A stretch of 64,000 nucleotides of DNA from Thermoanaerobaculia bacterium (GTDB taxonomy: Bacteria > Acidobacteriota > Thermoanaerobaculia > Multivoradales > Multivoraceae), in NCBI GenBank assembly GCA_022822365.1, contig JAJEBV010000050.1:411-64410 (forward strand). Direction: 5' to 3'. Made by a program: the position numbers and the translations under genes. Within the stretch, counting starts at the first letter, position 1; each line of letters begins with the position of its first letter. The notes below the pieces were generated by a model. The model had not been told where the DNA came from, made no database searches, and saw only the letters and a program-made list of their open reading frames with translations. This document shows, piece by piece, positions 4,675 to 59,527 of the stretch.

Positions 4675-6486
4675 TCAGTTCCCGGCCCCCTCGCCCACGG
4701 CCAGGGTGGTCGAGACGAACGCGGTCTCGCGCGTGGCGTCGTCCCGCACGCCGACCGCGACCAGGTTCAGGCCGTCCGGAATGTCGATGTTGAAGACCAG
4801 GTCGAGAAGGCGCGTGTCGCGATCCGGGGGCGCTTCCACCAGAAAGGTCTTCTCGTCCCTGACCACCCTCGAGGTCTGGGCGTGGCGGCTGGCGACCTCC
4901 ACCCGGATCTGCGCCATCTCCTTGTCCTCGAACGGCAGGAAGGCGACTCCCGCGGCCGGCACCATGACGTGGAGGGGCAGCCGCCGCTTGCCGCCGCCGG
5001 CCGCGCGAACGCGGCCCGCGCCCAGCCGCACGCCCAGCGGGTTCTCGACCAGACCGAGATAGAGCGCGCCGTCGAGCTGCTCGCTCATTCGCTGGTCGGA
5101 ACTCTTGTCGCGGTAGCCGCGGCGGTGGCGGACCTGCACGTTCCGGCCCCGGACCCGCACGCGGATCTGGTGTTCGCCGCGGTCGCCGCCATGGGGCGGG
5201 CGGTAGGCGAGCGAGTAGTAGCTCGCCATCTCGTCGGCGATCTGCTCGAGTTCGTCCGCGAACTGGTTGCGGTTGAAGATGGCGCGGCCGCCGGTCTCGT
5301 CGGCGAGCACGGCCATGCCGTCGCGTTCGGCTTCGCGAACCGAGCTGTTGAAGGGGTTCGCCCCCTGGAAGTCGATCGAGGACTGCTCCGCCGCGCTCAG
5401 GAACGCCGGGCGGAGGCCGCTGGTCTGGAGCGAGTAGACCGTCACGCGGTTCGCGTTGGCGTGACGGGTGAGCTCGTGGAATCCGCCCGACAGTTCCGCC
5501 ACCGGCGACTGCGAGCGGAACCGGTCGCCGGCGGGACACAGGCCGGTGATGAAGTCCCGCAAGTCGCTGCCGGGAGTCCGTTCGAGGGAGTCGCTGATGT
5601 AGAGCAGCGTCTTGACGCCGGGCAGCGCGGCCAGAAAGCGGACGGTCGTCGTCAGGTGATCGAGCGTCGCGCCGATCCGGTCGCGGCCGATGTGGGCGGC
5701 GTTCTCGACCTCGGGCAGCGCCTGGCGCACGAACGTTCCGCAGGGCGCCGGCGCCGAGTTCCGGCGGCTGCTGCCCGCCGAAGCGAGCGTCCTCGCGTCC
5801 TGCCAGAGCTGGTTCAACCGCCGTATCGCGAGCCGCTTCGCCTGCTGCGACTGGCCGCCCATTCCCGGCGAGGCCGCGATGCGCTCGAGCGCCGCGTCCA
5901 GGTCCTCGCGGCTGGAACCGAAGTAGGCCTCGGTGACGAGGTCGCGATCCTGGCGGAAGATGAGCACGCGTTCCGCCGGGAACCTCTCCTCGTCGAGGAA
6001 AGCTCTCAGATCCTCGATCGCCTGCTTGCGGCTGGCCGGACCGAGATGGAGTTCGTCGAAGTAGAGGACGAGATGCGCGGGTTCGGCCGCGGCCCCGGCT
6101 CCGGTTGCTTCCCGTTCGGCCGCCGGCTCGCCAGGCTCTCCAACCGGACTGGCGGACACGGCATCCGTGACCTCGCTGAAGAAGTCGATCGTCACCGGTT
6201 CGCCGTCCTCGCGCACCTCGAAGTCTTCCGGACCCAGGCCCGTCACCGGACGGCCGCGCCTGTCGCTGACCCAGACTTCGACGTTCACGAGCTGAACGTC
6301 GACGACTTCGCTGAAAGAGGGTGGCTCGGACTCCTGCGCCTGGGCGTGGGCGAAAGCCGGCCCCAGCACCGAGAACGCCATCGCCGGCCACGCGGACCAG
6401 AAACCCGGGGGTCGGCGTCGCGTCCGCGCGGCACAGGCGCGCGGGGGGGCGGCAGGAGCGCGGCCTGAACTTCTCAACATCATCAC
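4675..6486 (-). CDS. von Willebrand factor type A (VWA) domain exported protein
   Basis: 603-aa ORF with a basic N-region plus hydrophobic 'FWSAWPAMAFSVLGPAFAHAQAQE' signal. A VWA-like fold region follows ('LVLYFDELHLGPASRKQAIEDLRAFLDE...'), with a metal-ion-dependent-adhesion-site-like 'ISDSLE'. It is adjacent to TPR genes, a Bat-like arrangement. An alternative start at ATG 6381 is possible. Confidence 0.65.
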   Translation of the reverse strand: MMMLRSSGRAPAAPPRACAARTRRRPPGFWSAWPAMAFSVLGPAFAHAQAQESEPPSFSEVVDVQLVNVEVWVSDRRGRPVTGLGPEDFEVREDGEPVTIDFFSEVTDAVSASPVGEPGEPAAEREATGAGAAAEPAHLVLYFDELHLGPASRKQAIEDLRAFLDEERFPAERVLIFRQDRDLVTEAYFGSSREDLDAALERIAASPGMGGQSQQAKRLAIRRLNQLWQDARTLASAGSSRRNSAPAPCGTFVRQALPEVENAAHIGRDRIGATLDHLTTTVRFLAALPGVKTLLYISDSLERTPGSDLRDFITGLCPAGDRFRSQSPVAELSGGFHELTRHANANRVTVYSLQTSGLRPAFLSAAEQSSIDFQGANPFNSSVREAERDGMAVLADETGGRAIFNRNQFADELEQIADEMASYYSLAYRPPHGGDRGEHQIRVRVRGRNVQVRHRRGYRDKSSDQRMSEQLDGALYLGLVENPLGVRLGAGRVRAAGGGKRRLPLHVMVPAAGVAFLPFEDKEMAQIRVEVASRHAQTSRVVRDEKTFLVEAPPDRDTRLLDLVFNIDIPDGLNLVAVGVRDDATRETAFVSTTLAVGEGAGN

Positions 6487-38262: not shown

Positions 38263-39552
38263 ATGACGAGTCGACGCCTGGTTGGTTTTGCGTTCTGCCT
38301 GGTCTTTGCCGCGGCGGCCCACGGCGCTGCTGACGCGGAAGGGCCGACATTCTATGAGGATGTCCTGCCCATCCTGCAGCAGAACTGCCAGGAGTGTCAC
38401 CGGCCGTCGGGCAGCAAGATCTACCGGGGCGGCGTGCCCATGTCGCTCACGACGTACGAGGAGGCCCGGCCCTGGGCGCGCTCGATCGTCCGCATGACGG
38501 CGTCGAAGGAGATGCCGCCGTGGGACGCCTCCGAGCACTTCGACGGCGTGTTCCGGAACGAGCGCGGCCTGACCGACGGGGAGATCGCAACGCTGAAGCG
38601 CTGGGTCGAGGCGGGCGCGCAGTCCGGCCGTCCCGAGAACGGCCCCGCGCCCATCGAGTGGCCCGACGACGACGGCTGGGTGTTCACCGATCCCGACCTC
38701 GTGCTCAAGATGCCCGAGCCCTACTACGTCGAGGACGACATCAAGGACGTCTACACCAAGCACCGCCTGATCCTGACTCCGGACCTCCTGCCCGAGGACA
38801 AGTGGGTGCAGGAGATCGAGTTCCGCCGCGGCAGCGAGCTCGTCCACCACTTCAACATCTTCGTCAAGAGTCCGGACGACGAGGAGACCCGCGGCGACGG
38901 GAACTACCTCGGCGGCGCCACGTCAGGCTCGCCGCCGCACGTGTGGCCGGAGGGCTACGGCTCGCTGCTGCGGACCGGCGACACGCTGACCTTCGACCTG
39001 CACTACCACAAGGAGCCGGGCCCCGGCAGCGGCGGCTGGGACCAGTCGTCCATCGCGCTCAAGTTCGCGACGAAGCCGGTCGAGCACCCGATCCACTTCT
39101 TCCCGATCAGCAACTTCGAGTTCGAGATTCCGGCCAACCACGACTACTGGCACGACACGGCCGAACGGACGTTCGAACGCGACGTGACGATCCTCGGCAT
39201 GCTCCCCCACATGCACATGCGCGGCCGCGAGGCGAAGTACACCGTCCTCTACCCGGACGGCCGCGAGGAGCAGATCCTCCACGTGCCGGACTGGGACTTC
39301 GACTGGCAGGAGATCTACTGGTACGACGAGCCGAAGGTACTGCCCGCGGGCAGCACCCTGCGCATCGACATGTGGTTCGACAACTCGCCCGAGGAGGCGG
39401 AGCGCTGGGGCTTCAACCCGGACCGCGTCGTGACGTTCGGGCCGGAGTCGACCGACGAGATGCTGATGGGCTTCATCTCCTGCGTCTACAACGACGAGGA
39501 GCCGCCCAGGGCGCGCCTGCCCGGCGTGATCGAGACGACCGGCGGGGAGTAG
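38263..39552 (+). CDS. exported c-type cytochrome domain protein with C-terminal PHM/DBH-like (copper monooxygenase-like) domain, tentative
   Basis: SD 'GGGAGGG' precedes ATG and a signal peptide. Single 'CQECH' heme motif. C-terminal 'HFNIFV...HYHKEPG...HMHMRGR...DWDFDWQ' resembles the His-rich/Met copper sites of the peptidylglycine monooxygenase fold. This is fold-level inference only. Confidence 0.5.
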   Translation: MTSRRLVGFAFCLVFAAAAHGAADAEGPTFYEDVLPILQQNCQECHRPSGSKIYRGGVPMSLTTYEEARPWARSIVRMTASKEMPPWDASEHFDGVFRNERGLTDGEIATLKRWVEAGAQSGRPENGPAPIEWPDDDGWVFTDPDLVLKMPEPYYVEDDIKDVYTKHRLILTPDLLPEDKWVQEIEFRRGSELVHHFNIFVKSPDDEETRGDGNYLGGATSGSPPHVWPEGYGSLLRTGDTLTFDLHYHKEPGPGSGGWDQSSIALKFATKPVEHPIHFFPISNFEFEIPANHDYWHDTAERTFERDVTILGMLPHMHMRGREAKYTVLYPDGREEQILHVPDWDFDWQEIYWYDEPKVLPAGSTLRIDMWFDNSPEEAERWGFNPDRVVTFGPESTDEMLMGFISCVYNDEEPPRARLPGVIETTGGE

Positions 39553-45283: not shown

Positions 45284-46156
45284 TCAGACTTTCTTGCGCT
45301 GAATCTGCGCGAACAGGCCTTCGGGCCGCAGGATCAGGGCCACGATGAGAATGCCGTAGGCGGCCATCTCCTGGAAGCCGGCGGGCAGGTAGACCCCCGC
45401 GAACTGCTCGGAGACGCCGATGATCCAGCCGCCGAGCAACGCGCCCGGGATCGACCCGAAGCCGCCGATCACCGCGGCCGCGAAGGCCTTGATCCCGATG
45501 AATCCCATCCCGGGCTGGACGAGCGAGACGGGCGCCAGGAGGATCCCGGCCACGGCGGCGACTCCGGCGGAGATCGCCCACACCAGGGAGAAGACCCGCT
45601 TGACCGGGATGCCGACGTAGTAGGCCGCGAGCTGGTTCTGCGACGTGGCCTGCATGCCGATGCCCAGCCGCGTGTGGCGGAAGAAGAGGAACAGCACGAC
45701 GCAGAGGACGAGGGTGCCCAGCAGGATCGCGAGGTTCTCGTAGCTCACGACGACTCCGCCGACCCGCAGCGACTCGCCGGTGTAGGGAGTGGGAAAGCTC
45801 CGCGGGTCGTAGCCCCACACGAGTCCCGCCACGGCGCGGAAGATGAAGCCCAGCCCGATCGTCAGCATCACGATGGCGAACTGCGGTTCACCCAGAACCC
45901 GGCGCAGCACGAAGGCGTCGAGCAGATAGCCGAAGACCGCCAGCGCCAGGACCGACAGGAACAGCCCCAGCACCCAGGGCATACCGACGTCGCCGATCAG
46001 GGTCACCGCCATGAAGGCGCCCAGCATCATCAGATCGCCCTGGGCGAAGTTCACCATCTCGGTCGCCTTGTAGACGAGGACGAAGCCGAGAGCGATCAGG
46101 CCGTAGATGCAGCCGACGGCCAGACCATTGACGAGAACCTGCAGGAGCTGACTCAG
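45284..46156 (-). CDS. livH: branched-chain-amino-acid-type ABC permease (LivH-like)
   Basis: 'LSQLLQVLVNGLAVGCIYGLIALGFVLVYKATEMVNFAQGD' aligns with LivH N-termini. No in-frame ATG or GTG is available. A CTG or other non-canonical start near 46156, overlapping the TauD 3' end, is assumed, so the start is uncertain. Confidence 0.65.
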   Translation of the reverse strand: MSQLLQVLVNGLAVGCIYGLIALGFVLVYKATEMVNFAQGDLMMLGAFMAVTLIGDVGMPWVLGLFLSVLALAVFGYLLDAFVLRRVLGEPQFAIVMLTIGLGFIFRAVAGLVWGYDPRSFPTPYTGESLRVGGVVVSYENLAILLGTLVLCVVLFLFFRHTRLGIGMQATSQNQLAAYYVGIPVKRVFSLVWAISAGVAAVAGILLAPVSLVQPGMGFIGIKAFAAAVIGGFGSIPGALLGGWIIGVSEQFAGVYLPAGFQEMAAYGILIVALILRPEGLFAQIQRKKV

Positions 46157-47010
46157 AGTGTCTCCTGGCCCTCGCGCGCCAGCACCTGGCAACGCTTCAT
46201 CAGCCGCCGCAGGTGGTCGGGGAACGCGTCCCGGCGATGAAGAACGCGACGGTTGTCCCAGATGAGCACGTCGCCGACCGTCCATTTCTGGGTCCAGACG
46301 TTCTCGGGTAGCGCCGCGTAGCTCCAGAGTTCGTCGAGCAGCGCCTCGCTCTCGTCGACTTCCATTCCCATCACGTAAGCCCACTCGCGCCGGCCGAGAT
46401 AGAGGCCCTCGCGGCCGGTCTCCGGGTGACGCAGGATCGCCGGATGGACCGCGCCGGGCGACTCTCTCGGGCTGTCCACTTCCTCGAAGCCGACGCGCAA
46501 CTGGCCGATGCTGGTGTGGGCGGCGTCGTGCTTGATCTCGATCGTCTCCGCCTGCTCGCGGAGCGCCGGCGGCAGGGACGCGAGCGCGGCCTGCTGGCAG
46601 GCGAACTGGGTGTCGCCGCCCTCCTCCGGCACCTCGATGCTGAGCAGGACGCTGGCCGGCGGCGGCGTCTCCTCGTACGTCATGTCCGAGTGCCATCTGG
46701 CCTCCGCGTTGCCGAGACCGCCGATCGGCTTGCCGTTCTTCCTGATGTTCGAGAGCGGCGTGACGTACAGGCTGTCGAACATCTTCCTCAGCTTCTCTTC
46801 CGGCAGCTTGACGGGGATCTTCTCGAGCGGCCCGAAGCGCGCGCTGAAGCGCTCCAGTTGCGGGTCGTCGAGGCTCTGGCCGCGGATGCGCAGGACGCCG
46901 TGGTCGAGCCACGCCTGGTAGATCGTCTCGAACTCCGCGTCGGAGATCGCGGCCAGGTCGACGCCGTCGATGTTGGCGCCGAGGGCGGGGGAGAGCGGCG
47001 TGATGTTCAT
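46153..47010 (-). CDS. TauD/TfdA-family Fe(II)/2-oxoglutarate-dependent dioxygenase
   Basis: 'MNITPLSPALGANIDGVDLAAISDAEFETIYQAWLDHGVLRIRGQ', 'WHSDMTYEETPP' (HxD facial triad), '...HRRDAF'. The 54 N-terminal codons of the track ORF are repeat read-through. Confidence 0.8.
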   Translation of the reverse strand: MNITPLSPALGANIDGVDLAAISDAEFETIYQAWLDHGVLRIRGQSLDDPQLERFSARFGPLEKIPVKLPEEKLRKMFDSLYVTPLSNIRKNGKPIGGLGNAEARWHSDMTYEETPPPASVLLSIEVPEEGGDTQFACQQAALASLPPALREQAETIEIKHDAAHTSIGQLRVGFEEVDSPRESPGAVHPAILRHPETGREGLYLGRREWAYVMGMEVDESEALLDELWSYAALPENVWTQKWTVGDVLIWDNRRVLHRRDAFPDHLRRLMKRCQVLAREGQETL

Positions 47011-47029: not shown

Positions 47030-47372
47030 GCGGGGCGGAGCCGGCCTTCGAAGCGGAGCCGGCCTGGCGGCCGGCGCGAGTAGATGGCGCACCCAACGGA
47101 GCGGAGCCGGCCTGACAGCCGGCGCGTGTTCCTGGCCGCCTGCGGCGGCAGCGGGTCAGAGGACCCGCGCACCCGGAGATAGGGCTGGGTGCGGGCGTGG
47201 TTCTGTTCTGGAACCGTCAGGGCGTCACTTCGAGCGGTGGGCTTGCAGTAGAGATGCTGGCTGCGGGAAGGGCCGTGCTCTGGGTGCGCGGGTCTTCTGA
47301 CCCGCTTCGGGCGCAGTCGCGGAGCGACGAAGCCCGAGACAAACAGCCACCGGCCGCAGGCCGGTGACCTTC
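47030..47372. repeat. composite REP/MITE-like repeat array (degenerate half + F-arm + about 100-bp spacer-2 + R-arm + tail), inverted partner of 50334..50600
   Basis: F-arm 'GGCGGCAGCGGGTCAGAGGACCCGCGCACCCGGAG' at about 47140-47175. R-arm 'CTCTGGGTGCGCGGGTCTTCTGACCCGC' at about 47278-47306. The spacer and tail are near-exact reverse complements of 50393-50550 and 50335-50395. Confidence 0.85.
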
Positions 47373-47388: not shown

Positions 47389-48660
47389 TCAGATGTAGGG
47401 CTCGACGCCGGGCATCAACTGGTCCATGTAGACCCGGGGGACCATGGCGCGGCGGCCGAACATGCCGAGCGCCCGGTGTTCCGAGCCGGCGAGTCGCACG
47501 GCGGCGGCGCCGATCAGCCGTGCCAGCGCCGTCTCGCGCCAGAACCAGTCGCGGAGCTCGAGTGAGGTCGCACGGCCGGGCCGGCCCTGGGCCGCTTCCA
47601 TGTACCAGGTGCGCAGGTCGTCGCAGCCCAGGCGCACCCACTCGGGGAGCGGCAGGTTCGTGGCGACCGAGGGGTCGTTGGCGCCGCCGGCCAGTTCGCC
47701 CAGACCGCGCACGATCTGCTCGTGGCTGAGGCCGCTCGCCGCGGGCGCCGACCGGCCGCGGTGCGCCGCGTAGACCTCCTGCCACGGTGCGAGGCGGCGC
47801 AGTTCCGCGAGGACCTCGCCCACCAGCACCGAATCGTCGGCGGCAGCCCCGGCGAACGAGACCGGGCAGGACCAGCCGCCGGCGTCGTCATCGTGAACAA
47901 CGGGCGCGTCGTCCGGAAAGTCCTCAAGAATGACCGGGCCGTCCCGCCGCTCCAGCAAGCCGAGCGCGGCCCGCAGGACCCGGCGCTGGAAGTCCGGCTC
48001 ATGGGGCGCGCCGAACGGCCGCCCCAGCTCGAACGGCACCCACAGGAACCGGGGCAGTTCCATCCGCTCCGTGTTGATCCGCACCAGGCTGATGCCCGTC
48101 GTCGCGATGCCTTCGTCTTCGAGAAAGTGACTCACCGCGCCCACGGCGCGGGTGCAGTTCGGTCACACGGGACAGAGGCAGACCGCCTCCACCTCGTCCT
48201 CCCTGAGCCGCGCCGCGAGCTCGCGCACCGTGTCTTCGATCGCCTCTGGCGGCCAGCCGGCGCCCATCAGCGAGTAGTGGAAGTCGGCCACCGAGCCGAT
48301 CTCCCCCTCGCTCTCCAGTTCGCGCAGCCGATCCAGCGGGAAGACCACGTTCACGTCCTCGCGGAATCCGGTCCGGTCGAAGTGGACGGACGAGTGCGTC
48401 ATCGTCAGCTCGCGCGTCGAGATCGAGCCGGGAATCACGCGATAGCTCAGGTCGACCGTCGAGAACGCGCGATCGCCCACCCGGTGCAGGCCGGCCGAGG
48501 TCACCAGCGCGACCCGCCGCTCGGAAAGCGGCGGACCCTCGACCCAGGGCTTCGTCGCGAACGGCACGCACTCCTTCGCCACCACGTGGGCGGCTTCGAC
48601 TTCGGCCATGTCGGACAAACGGACCATCGCGTCTCCTCGTGCAGCCAGAGGCTGACACAA
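47389..48660 (-). CDS. GrdB/PrdB-family (glycine/betaine/D-proline reductase component B-like) protein with in-frame TGA, putative selenoprotein
   Basis: Track ORFs 48163..48660 and 47389..48144 are in the same frame (774 nt apart) and separated only by TGA at 48165-48163. The continuous translation is '...EVEAVCLCPV-U-PNCTRAVGAVSHFLEDEGIATTGISLVRINTERM...' with a Cys-rich redox-type motif around the TGA. A GC-rich hairpin 'CACCCGCGCC-GUG-GGCGCGGUG' begins 10 nt 3' of the UGA. Confidence 0.55.
48133..48154 (-). ncRNA. SECIS-like stem-loop immediately downstream of in-frame UGA (cis-acting mRNA element)
   Basis: mRNA 'UGA CCGAACUG CACCCGCGCC GUG GGCGCGGUG' forms a 9-bp stem with one bulge and a G/U-containing apical loop at the spacing typical of bacterial SECIS. 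Confidence 0.45.
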
Positions 48661-48821: not shown

Positions 48822-50324
48822 ATGAGCATCGCCGCCTCCGAACCCACCAGCGTCCCCACGTCCCCTCCCGACCTGGACGACCCCGATCTGCTCCGAGCCC
48901 AGGCCTACATCGACGGCCAGTGGGTCGACGCGGACTCCGGCGAGACCTTCGCCGTCGAGAACCCGGCCACGGGCGAAACCCTGGCCGAGGTCGCCTGCAG
49001 CGGCGCCGCCGAAACGAGGCGCGCCATCGAGGCCGCCGCCAGGGCCTTCGAGCAGTGGCGGCACACGACGGCCAAGGAGCGCGCCGCGTTGCTGCGGCGC
49101 TGGTTCGACCTGATGATGGAGAGCCAGGAAGACCTGGCGCAGATGATGACGGCCGAACAGGGCAAGCCCCTCTTCGAGGCCCGCGGGGAGATCGCCTACG
49201 GCGCCAGCTACGTCGAGTGGTTCGCCGAAGAGGCCAAGCGGGTGTACGGCGACACGATCCCCCAGCCTTCCAACGACAAGCGCGTCGTCTGCATCAAGCA
49301 GCCGGTGGGAGTGGTGGCCTGCATCACGCCCTGGAACTTCCCCAACGCCATGCTCGCGCGCAAGATCGCACCGGCCCTTGCCGCCGGCTGCACGGTGGTC
49401 TGCAAGCCGGCCAACGAGACGCCGCTGTCGGCCAATGCCCTGGCCGAGCTGGCGGAGAGGGCGGGCATCCCGGCTGGCGTGATCAACATCCTCTGCGGCC
49501 AGACCGAGGAGATCGGCAAGGAACTGACGTCCAACCCGACGGTTCGCAAGCTCACCTTCACCGGCTCGACCGCGGTGGGCAAGCTGCTCATGACCCAATG
49601 CGCGGGCACGATGAAGCGGATGTCGATGGAACTGGGCGGCAACGCGCCCTTCATCGTGTTCGACGACGCCGACCTGGATGCGGCGGTGGCCGGCGCGATG
49701 ATCTGCAAGTTCCGCAACGCCGGCCAGACCTGCGTCTGCGCCAACCGCATCCTGGTCCAGGAAGGCGTCTACGACGAGTTCGCCGAGAAGCTCGCTGCGG
49801 CGGTGGCCGGGATCAAGATGGGCGACGGCACCGAGGACGGCGTCACCGTGGGGCCGCTGATCAGCACCGAGGCCGTTGCGAACGTGACGAGTCGCGTCAC
49901 CGACGCGGTCGACCGCGGCGCCACGGTCGAGATCGGCGGCGGCCCGTCCGATCTCGGCGATTGCTTCGTCCAGCCCACGATCCTCACCGGCGTGACGGAC
50001 GACATGCGGGTCTTCCGTGAAGAGATCTTCGGCCCCATCGCGCCGCTCTTGAAGTTCAGCACGGAAGAGGAAGCGATCGCCATGGCCAACGACACCGAGT
50101 TCGGCCTGGCCAGCTACTTCTACGCCCGCGACGTCGGCCGCATCTGGCGCGTCAGCGAGGCGCTGGAGTACGGCATCGTCGGCATCAACGAAGGCATCAT
50201 CTCCAACGAAATGGCCCCCTTCGGCGGCATGAAGGAATCCGGCCACGGTCGCGAAGGGTCGAAGTACGGGCTGGATGACTATCTGGAGATCAAGTACATG
50301 TGTATTGGTGGGATTGAGGCGTAG
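48822..50324 (+). CDS. gabD: NAD(P)+-dependent succinate-semialdehyde dehydrogenase
   Basis: 500 aa with 'ACITPWNFP', 'FTGSTAVGK', 'ELGGNAPFIVF', catalytic 'GQTCVCANR', and 'EGIISNEMAPFGGMKESG'. Closest to the GabD/SSADH subfamily. Confidence 0.85.
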   Translation: MSIAASEPTSVPTSPPDLDDPDLLRAQAYIDGQWVDADSGETFAVENPATGETLAEVACSGAAETRRAIEAAARAFEQWRHTTAKERAALLRRWFDLMMESQEDLAQMMTAEQGKPLFEARGEIAYGASYVEWFAEEAKRVYGDTIPQPSNDKRVVCIKQPVGVVACITPWNFPNAMLARKIAPALAAGCTVVCKPANETPLSANALAELAERAGIPAGVINILCGQTEEIGKELTSNPTVRKLTFTGSTAVGKLLMTQCAGTMKRMSMELGGNAPFIVFDDADLDAAVAGAMICKFRNAGQTCVCANRILVQEGVYDEFAEKLAAAVAGIKMGDGTEDGVTVGPLISTEAVANVTSRVTDAVDRGATVEIGGGPSDLGDCFVQPTILTGVTDDMRVFREEIFGPIAPLLKFSTEEEAIAMANDTEFGLASYFYARDVGRIWRVSEALEYGIVGINEGIISNEMAPFGGMKESGHGREGSKYGLDDYLEIKYMCIGGIEA

Positions 50325-58488: not shown

Positions 58489-58983
58489 ATGCCAGACCCT
58501 GACTTCTCCACCTTCCCCCTCAAGAAGAAGGGCAACCGCTACCAGGACTTCGAGGAAGGCCGCACCTTCCAGCACCACTGGGGCCGCACCCTCACCGAGG
58601 CGGACAACGCGCTCTTCGCCACGTCGACGATGCGGTTCACGCCGCTCTACTTCAACGCCGAGTACGCGCGCGCCCATGGCCACGACTCGGTCGTCATCGA
58701 CCCGCTGCTCGTGCTTTGCACCGTGGTCGGCATGTCGGTCGAAGACCTCTCCGAGGGCGGCGGGCCGTTCCTCGGCGTCAACCAGGTGAAGTTCCACCGG
58801 CCGGTCTACCCGGGCGACACGATCACCGCCACGAGCCGCGTCGTCGGCCGCCGCGAGTCCGGCTCGCGCCCCGCCTTCGGCATCGTCACCTGGGAAACCG
58901 AGGCCCTCAACCAGCACGGCGACATCGTCGTCAGCTACCAGCGCACCAACCTCGTCGCCAAGCGCCGGGAGCCCGCGTCATGA
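58489..58983 (+). CDS. MaoC-like (R)-hydratase/dehydratase (enoyl-CoA hydratase, hot-dog fold)
   Basis: 164 aa with hot-dog hydratase signature around 'HGDIVVSYQRT'. Confidence 0.75.
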   Translation: MPDPDFSTFPLKKKGNRYQDFEEGRTFQHHWGRTLTEADNALFATSTMRFTPLYFNAEYARAHGHDSVVIDPLLVLCTVVGMSVEDLSEGGGPFLGVNQVKFHRPVYPGDTITATSRVVGRRESGSRPAFGIVTWETEALNQHGDIVVSYQRTNLVAKRREPAS

Positions 58984-59053
58984 CGGCCGCCACTGGGTGC
59001 GCCGGCCTTCTGGCCGGCTTTCCGGCCTCCGCACCGTGCGTGGAACCAACGCC

Positions 59054-59527
59054 ATGACCGCGACGCTCACCTCCGGCACGACCTACTTCGAAGACTTCAC
59101 CGCCGGCCAGAAGATGCGGCACGCCCGCAGCACCACCATCGAAGAAGTCGAAAGCCAGCTCCTCACCAAGCTCGTCATGAACACCGCCGACGGCCACTTC
59201 GACGAGCACAAGATGAAGGCGTCCCCCTTCGGCCAGCGCCTCGTCTTCGGCCTCGTCACCGGCTCCACCGTCATCGGCCTGGCCACCCAGGACACGGCCG
59301 AGAACGCGCTCGCCGAGCTCGGCCTCGACAGGATGCGCTTCCGCGCGCCGGTCTTCCTCGGCGACTCGCTGACTGCCTACACCGAGGTGCTCGAGGTCCG
59401 CGACGCCGACCGCGACGACGCCGGCGTCGTCCGCTTCAAGCACTGGGGCACGAAGCAGGACGGCACGATCGTCTTCGAAGGCGAGCGCGAGGTCCTGATC
59501 AAGCGCCGCTCGCACTGGGGGTCGTAG
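59054..59527 (+). CDS. MaoC-like hot-dog fold protein (second hydratase subunit)
   Basis: Start at ATG 59054 ('MTATLTSGTTYFEDFTAGQ'). Short B-type repeat 58991-59040 lies immediately upstream. The track ORF starts 19 codons earlier inside the repeat. Confidence 0.7.
   Translation: MTATLTSGTTYFEDFTAGQKMRHARSTTIEEVESQLLTKLVMNTADGHFDEHKMKASPFGQRLVFGLVTGSTVIGLATQDTAENALAELGLDRMRFRAPVFLGDSLTAYTEVLEVRDADRDDAGVVRFKHWGTKQDGTIVFEGEREVLIKRRSHWGS

Follow-up and report, generated by a model that had tools for sequence, protein, structure and literature searches.

Does the in-frame TGA at positions 48165-48163 of a 64,000-nt stretch of acidobacterial DNA end a protein, or does it encode selenocysteine (Sec)? 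The stretch (contig JAJEBV010000050.1 of assembly GCA_022822365.1, positions 411 to 64,410; called the window below, at its full length) comes from an uncultured member of the Acidobacteriota that is closely related to Candidatus Multivorans and has a symbiont-type genome. On its minus strand, the frame 48660..47389 translates continuously except for this single internal stop, and reads '...EAVCLCPV*PNCTRAVGAVSHF...' around it ('...DEVEAVCLCPV*PNCTRAVGAVSHFLE...' in a longer excerpt). An initial annotation, made from the letters alone, had noted that the open reading frames (ORFs) 48163..48660 and 47389..48144 are in frame and split only by the TGA, as the translation and the ORF list bear out, and had proposed that they form one selenoprotein gene. 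From sequence comparison, the two adjacent frames are very probably one gene of a PrdB-like family, with a genuine Sec codon and a selenocysteine insertion sequence (SECIS).

Results

One gene with a conserved TGA at codon 155

The likely start is ATG 48627, which is shared with the homologues, as the start Met is matched by all full-length ones (MVRLSD or similar). The product therefore has 412 residues, with Sec at position 155, rather than the combined length of about 423 residues first put forward. The gene, TGA included, is also present on contigs from three separate samples (L001-L003).

Scanning one genome per species yielded a set of 80 orthologous loci. TGA stands at exactly the equivalent of codon 155 in 77 of them, in at least nine phyla, and TAA or TAG never does. 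The loci span Acidobacteriota (Ca. Multivorans and relatives, up to 96% identity), Hydrogenedentota, Myxococcota, Planctomycetota, Binatia, Acidimicrobiia, Alpha- and Gammaproteobacteria, one spirochaete, and Chloroflexota, with marine Alphaproteobacteria including SAR116 and Puniceispirillum among the carriers. In the remaining three loci, the codon is CGA (L059) or lies within internal deletions across the region (L039 and L051). These deletions, both in Multivorans-type sequences (L039:10001-11024 and L051:504-1657), change the frame and remove the Sec region (residues ~88-160 and 131-161, respectively); they reflect either pseudogenes or errors of long-read assembly. Four orthologous genome loci contain paralogues in tandem, all with an in-frame TGA of their own, and L035, L038, L041, L067 and L118 are the loci listed with such copies.

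TGA is an ordinary stop in the window, where it terminates the present gene and many others. Only one TGA besides codon 155 is flanked by coding-like sequence in the 64 kb. It lies at 45284-45286 on the minus strand, where it ends an ABC permease gene that is followed by the next permease in the same frame, and is an ordinary gene boundary.

The homologues found by sequence searches are of two kinds. A word-indexed search gave about 60 close matches, all of ~250 residues and beginning just after the TGA, together with a dozen homologues of 404-436 residues (~40-45% identity) that have Cys at the TGA column (PV-C-PNCTR). Searched exhaustively with a profile, 1.84 billion cluster representatives gave 490 clusters below 1e-30. 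The best 150 comprise ~125 C-terminal fragments starting right after the Sec column, four N-terminal fragments ending in '...PV', and ~20 full-length Cys forms. In total, ~25 full-length Cys forms show CPxC in place of UPxC. Alignment of homologues, which had been proposed as a check, thus places Cys at the TGA column in full-length forms and Sec in PrdB.

When the gene was compared with 13 Multivorans orthologues (dS 0.16-0.48), the ratio of nonsynonymous to synonymous substitution (dN/dS) was 0.07-0.16 in the N-terminal half and 0.10-0.18 in the C-terminal half. Purifying selection, as estimated in this way, has a similar strength upstream and downstream of the TGA. Among Cys and Sec positions, only U155, C158 and C254 are conserved. 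The flanking C149 and C151 are not, and the Cys-rich redox motif that had been read around the TGA does not hold.

Starting from the most distant Cys clade, a scan of metagenomes added a sister subfamily (loci L092-L171), ~33-36% identical to the window protein and with the motif PV-U-PLC-TRTV. Its 80 metagenome loci divide into 75 with TGA and 5 with Cys.

A hairpin tied to the UGA

The RNA 3′ of the UGA was examined in an ungapped alignment of 78 distinct sequences, in which the TGA occupies columns 7-9. In the window sequence, pairs run from C21-G37 through C27-G31, the latter closing a GUG loop, and two further pairs (A19-U38 and C18-G39) are possible with C20 bulged. The strong 9-bp stem with one bulge and a GUG loop of the initial annotation is thus present here, with outer pairs and loop closure that are lineage-specific: 19-38 can pair in 54/78 sequences and 18-39 in 32/78, the outer and loop-closing C-G pairs together ranging over 32-54/78. 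The stem had been placed 10 nt after the UGA; as drawn it begins 8 nt after, and the conserved core 11 nt after. A lower stem of columns 17-18 with 40-41 and a 20-38 pair were rejected as poorly supported (59% and 8%).

The core is much more regular. Columns 21-26 are paired with columns 37-32 in 93.4% of cells, and when the partner is slid by 1-3 columns, pairing is only 20-58%. Pair 21-37 is C-G in 40 sequences, G-C in 22, A-U in 3 and U-A in 3, while pair 22-36 is C-G in 68, U-A in 4 and G-C in 1. The covariation observed was reached by none of 500 shuffles. Column 21 falls on the third, synonymous position of a Thr codon, and its partner is the first base of the codon five residues later; the coupling has no protein-level explanation. 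The loop G and U are invariant in this alignment. On the other hand, the loop sequence alone proves little, because G-U makes up the first two bases of a conserved Val codon.

Whether the hairpin follows the codon or the peptide can be read from a pooled control of 136 distinct sequences from both subfamilies. The TGA forms (n = 127) have all six pairs in 107 cases, five in 18 and four in 2, so that at least five are kept in 125/127, and the G-U loop is found in 124/127. The Cys forms (TGC or TGT, n = 8) have 6, 5, 4, 4, 3, 2, 2 and 1 pairs, with at least five in 2/8 and the G-U loop in 2/8. The difference in pairing gives a Mann-Whitney p of 9e-9, which is indicative only as the sequences are related. 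L158 and L159 encode the identical peptide PLCPRTVCTLAHVFE, yet L158, with TGA, has 6/6 pairs and L159, with TGC, has 2/6, its synonymous sites having drifted. Therefore, the stem is preserved at the RNA level, and only in sequences with UGA at this codon. The terminal TGA stop of the same gene has no such hairpin.

Like the SECIS of E. coli fdhF, the hairpin lies directly 3′ of the UGA within the coding region, with a 17-nt core 11 nt on and a G-U apical loop. Unlike it, the sequence is unrelated, a bulged U is not evident in the conserved core, and SelB binding is a prediction. The core geometry matches that of the minimal fdhF element, and a spacing rule for SECIS elements was reportedly given by Liu et al. 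in 1998. The SECIS-like position and shape claimed at first sight are supported by the conservation, the covariation and the link of the hairpin to TGA and not to the peptide. In a marine survey (PMC1088965), a G in a small apical loop is described as the hallmark of bacterial SECIS elements.

Selenocysteine genes beside orthologues

Genes of the Sec machinery adjoin the orthologue in other genomes. In Puniceispirillum (L065:11504-15027), tRNA-Sec lies 300 nt downstream of it, followed by selA and selB. In another alphaproteobacterium (L082:7982-9926), tRNA-Sec lies 75 nt upstream, preceded by selB, and in a SAR116 single-cell genome (L061:2636-9356), it lies ~7 kb upstream. SelA or SelB genes are found in all three loci, and also within 7 kb of the orthologue in two Gammaproteobacteria (L066:1091-4853 and L074:1705-5116) and in one Acidimicrobiales genome (L036:3266-5299). 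It looks as if the selenoprotein is the main client of the Sec machinery in SAR116 and in the other genomes with adjoining sel genes.

Several observations tell against Sec decoding in the window. selA, selB, selC and selD were not found by a search limited to its 64 kb, within which ARAGORN found no tRNA. The folding energy of the hairpin is no better than that of shuffles (z = -0.57, in DNA of 69% G+C), and its significance comes only from comparison with relatives; Rfam likewise matched no family in the window or by the hairpin. Finally, one Cys form (L084:6472, P0108, TGT) keeps a perfect 6/6 hairpin with the G-U loop, which means that the hairpin is not lost at once when a gene converts to Cys. 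This locus is a candidate for a very recent Sec-to-Cys conversion. The CGA (Arg) variant (L059:1264) likewise keeps a perfect 6/6 hairpin with the G-U loop, and is a candidate for a recent mutation or a base-call error.

We propose that the 17-nt stem-loop, starting 11 nt after UGA-155 and with G-U in its apical loop, would act as a bacterial SECIS. SelB would be brought in by it together with Sec-tRNA(Sec), and Sec would be inserted without termination. Such SelB- and SECIS-dependent insertion is the likely decoding mechanism, strongly supported by the comparative evidence. The claim of one gene with a Sec-encoding UGA is thus upheld by the 77/80 loci, the Cys homologues, the TGA-tied hairpin and the sel genes beside orthologues.

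A PrdB-like domain with an extra C-terminal region

The protein matches PF07355 (GRDB) with 48.7 bits against a gathering cut-off of 22 (8.9e-13). Residues 34-151 align to profile positions 223-344 of 347, and Sec falls ~1 residue beyond the end of the model. The best NCBIfam match is TIGR04483, the PrdB equivalog (residues 32-226, 1.2e-30), at 106.7 bits against a cut-off of 300. The scores are also below the cut-offs for TIGR01918, the subfamily of glycine/betaine/sarcosine/D-proline reductase selenoprotein B (51.4 bits vs 65.45), and for the GrdF, GrdH and GrdB equivalogs (45.6-60.8 bits vs 602-800). Annotated prdB genes were found by tblastn against plasmids. PrdB of Peptoclostridium acidaminophilum is 37% identical over 227 residues (E 2e-35, BLASTP covering residues 11-231), and U155 stands exactly opposite its TGA-encoded Sec151 (UPNC vs UGTC). 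The assignment to the GrdB/PrdB family in the initial annotation was therefore sound, given the Pfam score above gathering and the alignment of Sec and UxxC with PrdB.

Within this superfamily, the protein resembles clostridial PrdB (P. acidaminophilum and the Terrisporobacter prdA-prdB pair) over ~220 homologous residues, including the Sec column, U-x-x-C, and the FPLDRL and PxR motifs. Unlike PrdB, it has 412 rather than ~240 residues, as a linker and helical extension of ~180 residues (232-412) has no PrdB counterpart. It shares the superfamily with GrdB, GrdF and GrdH, whose PF07355 profile it matches; unlike GrdB, its motif is U-P-N-C-T-R-A, a UxxC, where GrdB has UxxCxxC (review, PMC13188914). 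Matches to the GrdB profiles start at positions 222-226 of ~431-435, the N-terminal ~220 residues of GrdB not being present. The length of ~423 residues had been taken to fit GrdB. This likeness is a coincidence of different architectures, because GrdB adds ~220 residues before the shared domain and the present protein ~180 after it.

The C-terminal region has no Pfam or NCBIfam match, is conserved in both Sec and Cys forms, and is confidently modelled. No counterpart of it was found in the PDB, where the sequence search matched only an irrelevant lysozyme repeat. An AlphaFold2 (AF2) model was computed from 56 sequences with X at the Sec position (pLDDT 92.6, pTM 0.91, and mostly above 90 in the PrdB-like domain). 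In the model, U155 is predicted two residues after a strand (148-152), C158 in the first turn of a helix (157-171), and, beyond a linker with the nearly invariant Cys254-Pro255, a helical domain at residues 265-404.

A shorter protein of 302 residues, annotated as 'selenoprotein B family', is encoded on a plasmid of Roseomonas haemaphysalidis (L089:4863-7248), a cultured alphaproteobacterium, tail-to-tail with a gene for the SelO protein adenylyltransferase.

Alternative readings

Could the protein be a genuine PrdB subunit of D-proline reductase, serving Stickland-type proline reduction as the literature label implies? Its best NCBIfam match and the identity to real PrdB, with Sec and UxxC aligned, would fit. 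So would the nearby amino-acid-type ABC transporter, semialdehyde dehydrogenase (succinate-semialdehyde dehydrogenase (SSADH)/glutarate-semialdehyde type), coenzyme A (CoA) ligase and acyl-CoA dehydrogenase, which could process 5-aminovalerate. However, prdA adjoins prdB on the Terrisporobacter plasmid, whereas tblastn with Terrisporobacter PrdA found no homologue in the window or in 85 related loci. Unlike PrdB, which stands with prdACDEF, the present gene keeps company with TauD, SSADH and ABC transport genes. None of the window genes scanned was assigned by Pfam to the GrdA, GrdE or GrdC/D families. Moreover, the host lineages are largely aerobic marine heterotrophs. The protein is probably not a D-proline reductase, because no PrdA is nearby, the scores fall well short of the cut-offs for PrdB and GrdB, and the C-terminal helical domain is foreign to PrdB; we regard that identity as improbable.

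A second alternative keeps the TGA as a true stop, with two polypeptides of 154 and 251 residues, the latter restarted at GTG 48144. Public annotation does split the gene in this way in nearly all genomes, and the GTG is only 18 nt after the TGA. This GTG, however, has no purine-rich ribosome-binding site before it, and the six codons that separate it from the TGA (P-N-C-T-R-A) are kept as amino acids across phyla, invariant Cys158 included. A stop would also leave it odd that TAA and TAG never replace TGA in the 77 orthologues, that homologues are single chains with Cys at this position, and that the hairpin tracks the TGA and not the peptide. Termination at codon 155 is thus very improbable.

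The UGA could instead be read through with no use of selenium, by a near-cognate Trp- or Cys-tRNA or by a Cys-loaded tRNA(Sec). In keeping with this, selD was not seen in any orthologous locus examined. On the other hand, a SelB-type hairpin is under selection and tied to TGA, selC, selA and selB genes are adjacent in six genomes, and the aligned PrdB residue is annotated as Sec, so that we give this reading still less credence than a true stop. Least of all is a sequencing error or a pseudogene to be expected, since, for all the metagenome assembly source and the lesions in relatives L039, L051 (deletions) and L059 (CGA), the identical TGA recurs in the contigs from three samples and in 77 orthologues, and selection after it is strong (dN/dS as above).

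Genomic neighbourhood

The features of the locus are collected in Table 1. Downstream of the selenoprotein gene, the window contains the TauD-family dioxygenase gene, a LIV-type ABC transporter, an acyl-CoA ligase and a solute-binding protein.

Table 1. Positions of the selenoprotein gene, its parts and its neighbours in the window
Feature	Positions	Strand	Basis and remarks
Selenoprotein gene, complete	47389..48627	-	ATG 48627-48625; Sec-UGA at codon 155; TGA stop 47391-47389; 412 residues
Shine-Dalgarno-like GAGGAG (putative)	48633..48638	-	5 nt upstream of ATG; read from sequence
UGA read as selenocysteine U155 (predicted), opening the U-P-N-C motif	48163..48165	-	Conservation, Cys homologues, PrdB alignment
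Cys158 codon, resolving Cys of UxxC (predicted)	48154..48156	-	Invariant in alignments; common to PrdB
SECIS conserved core (predicted), 17 nt, 6-bp stem and 5-nt loop N-G-U-N-R	48135..48151	-	Starts 11 nt after UGA
Extended hairpin of the initial annotation, 9 bp with C bulge	48133..48154	-	Outer pairs lineage-specific
PrdB-like alpha/beta domain, residues 1 to ~231	47935..48627	-	PF07355, TIGR04483, BLASTP to PrdB, AF2
C-terminal region absent from PrdB	47392..47934	-	Linker with Cys254-Pro255 (codon 47868-47866), then helices 265-404
Terminator-like hairpin, 11 bp (8 GC), weak T tract	47345..47369	-	20 nt after stop; consensus scan; weak evidence
TauD-family Fe(II)/2-oxoglutarate dioxygenase, downstream	46153..47010	-	PF02668 at 7e-62
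SSADH family gene, upstream, divergent	48822..50324	+	TIGR01780, 719 bits vs cut-off 646

TauD is the one neighbour found again in different phyla. Of the 71 loci with enough sequence, 33, in seven or more phyla, have an ORF of the TauD family, from one of several of its sub-clades, immediately downstream in the same orientation, and in 2 of the 3 Cys-form contigs examined such an ORF is within 4 nt of, or overlaps, the selenoprotein gene. A conserved family-wide operon was considered and rejected, as SSADH, PrpD-like, acyl-CoA dehydrogenase, LIV-type ABC transporter and CoA ligase genes are shared only in the Multivorans clade (10-15 loci; the SSADH-family neighbour in 15, of that clade only).

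Some findings speak against a functional tie between the two genes. The TauD adjacency, 46% in the present subfamily, falls to 1/80 loci in the sister subfamily, and many Multivorans loci are without TauD. In the window itself, the terminator-like hairpin stands between the selenoprotein and TauD genes; the terminator scan found two sites where 1.0 was expected. The TauD association, although real, is thus incomplete, and what it means is a matter of interpretation.

In some Rhodospirillaceae (L048, L052 and L053), the selenoprotein gene lies among up to four TauD-family paralogues. A thiamine-diphosphate enzyme, an FAD_binding_2 oxidoreductase and a putative ORF pair of hydantoinase A/B size, assigned by reading, are also near in these loci. 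This gene company may be a clue to the substrate.

Elsewhere in the window, three further loci drew attention. Adjacent ORFs in different frames at 58489-58983 and 58997-59527 (plus strand) match positions 18-169 and 219-352 of PF19315, mesaconyl-CoA hydratase, and are followed by a family III CoA-transferase and an HpcH/HpaI-type lyase; the pair is either a two-subunit hydratase or a frameshift. ORFs at 4675-6391 (minus strand, 572 residues) and 38263-39552 (plus strand, 429 residues) have a coding-like base pattern, the former with no match in a Pfam scan, the only one applied to it, and the latter with no precomputed Pfam match and none in NCBIfam.

Proposed function

We conceived a reaction in which the selenol would attack a substrate carbon or an oxidised heteroatom. 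Cys158 would then resolve the adduct to a selenenylsulfide, which an external thiol system would re-reduce, and the protein would act with the downstream TauD-family dioxygenase in an aerobic catabolic route. This chemistry and the TauD partnership are speculative, and we consider them rather unlikely to be right as they stand. As for the enzymatic role, our best guess is a UxxC selenol/thiol reductase other than D-proline reductase, working with a TauD-type dioxygenase in the present subfamily. In a somewhat broader and still tentative form, to which we give slightly more weight, the protein could be a self-contained selenoenzyme, with a PrdB-like UxxC domain, a conserved third Cys, a private helical domain and no pyruvoyl partner, that in the subfamily of the present gene takes part with the TauD dioxygenase in aerobic catabolism of a small N- or S-containing acid. 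Taken as a whole, a 412-residue PrdB-like selenoprotein, proposed function included, is the best explanation of the locus and is quite likely.

Discussion

The initial annotation considered a Sec-dependent reductase of this family notable outside clostridia. This does not hold, because the family is already listed in the Sargasso Sea (2005) and Global Ocean Sampling (GOS, 2008) catalogues. The Sargasso Sea survey (Zhang, Fomenko & Gladyshev 2005, PMC1088965) ranks 'proline reductase PrdB', with UxxC, as the third most abundant selenoprotein family, with 42 Sec genes and one Cys homologue. The GOS survey (Zhang & Gladyshev 2008, PMC2398784) counts 235 Sec members and 110 Cys homologues. A PrdB selenoprotein is also listed for Anaeromyxobacter and Geobacter (PMC1794560). 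The present gene is thus a new member, from Acidobacteriota, of a known and abundant selenoprotein family and not a new kind of selenoprotein.

Like the marine 'PrdB' family as described there, the present one is related to pfam07355, has a UxxC Sec motif, and was predicted from a TGA/Cys pair with a SECIS bearing a loop G. In both, Sec forms far outnumber Cys forms (42:1 and 235:110 there; ~125 of the best 150 clusters here). We infer the identity of the two families from these descriptions. Unlike the sequences of the marine surveys, the present copy comes from an Acidobacteriota genome (Ca. Multivorans-like). The surveys give a name and a count; in their accessible parts, nothing is said of a C-terminal domain, a missing PrdA or a neighbouring TauD gene. 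Our literature searches found no functional study of the family and no comment on these three features, and those on Ca. Multivorans found nothing.

To a selenoprotein specialist, the Sec finding as such would come as no surprise, and the function is of greater interest. The family is among the most abundant marine selenoproteins, and its name rests on homology alone. The lack of PrdA nearby, the extra C-terminal domain, the frequent TauD pairing and the adjoining selC, selA and selB suggest that the name 'proline reductase PrdB', in routine use for marine and symbiont genomes, is wrong.

Public genomes almost always show the gene as two separate 'hypothetical' ORFs. Once these are joined, an enzyme of 412 residues is restored, and its host stands out as a user of selenium. 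If the proposed function is true, it would add a new reaction class to the GrdB/PrdB superfamily, and would give a function to one of the ocean's commonest selenoproteins.

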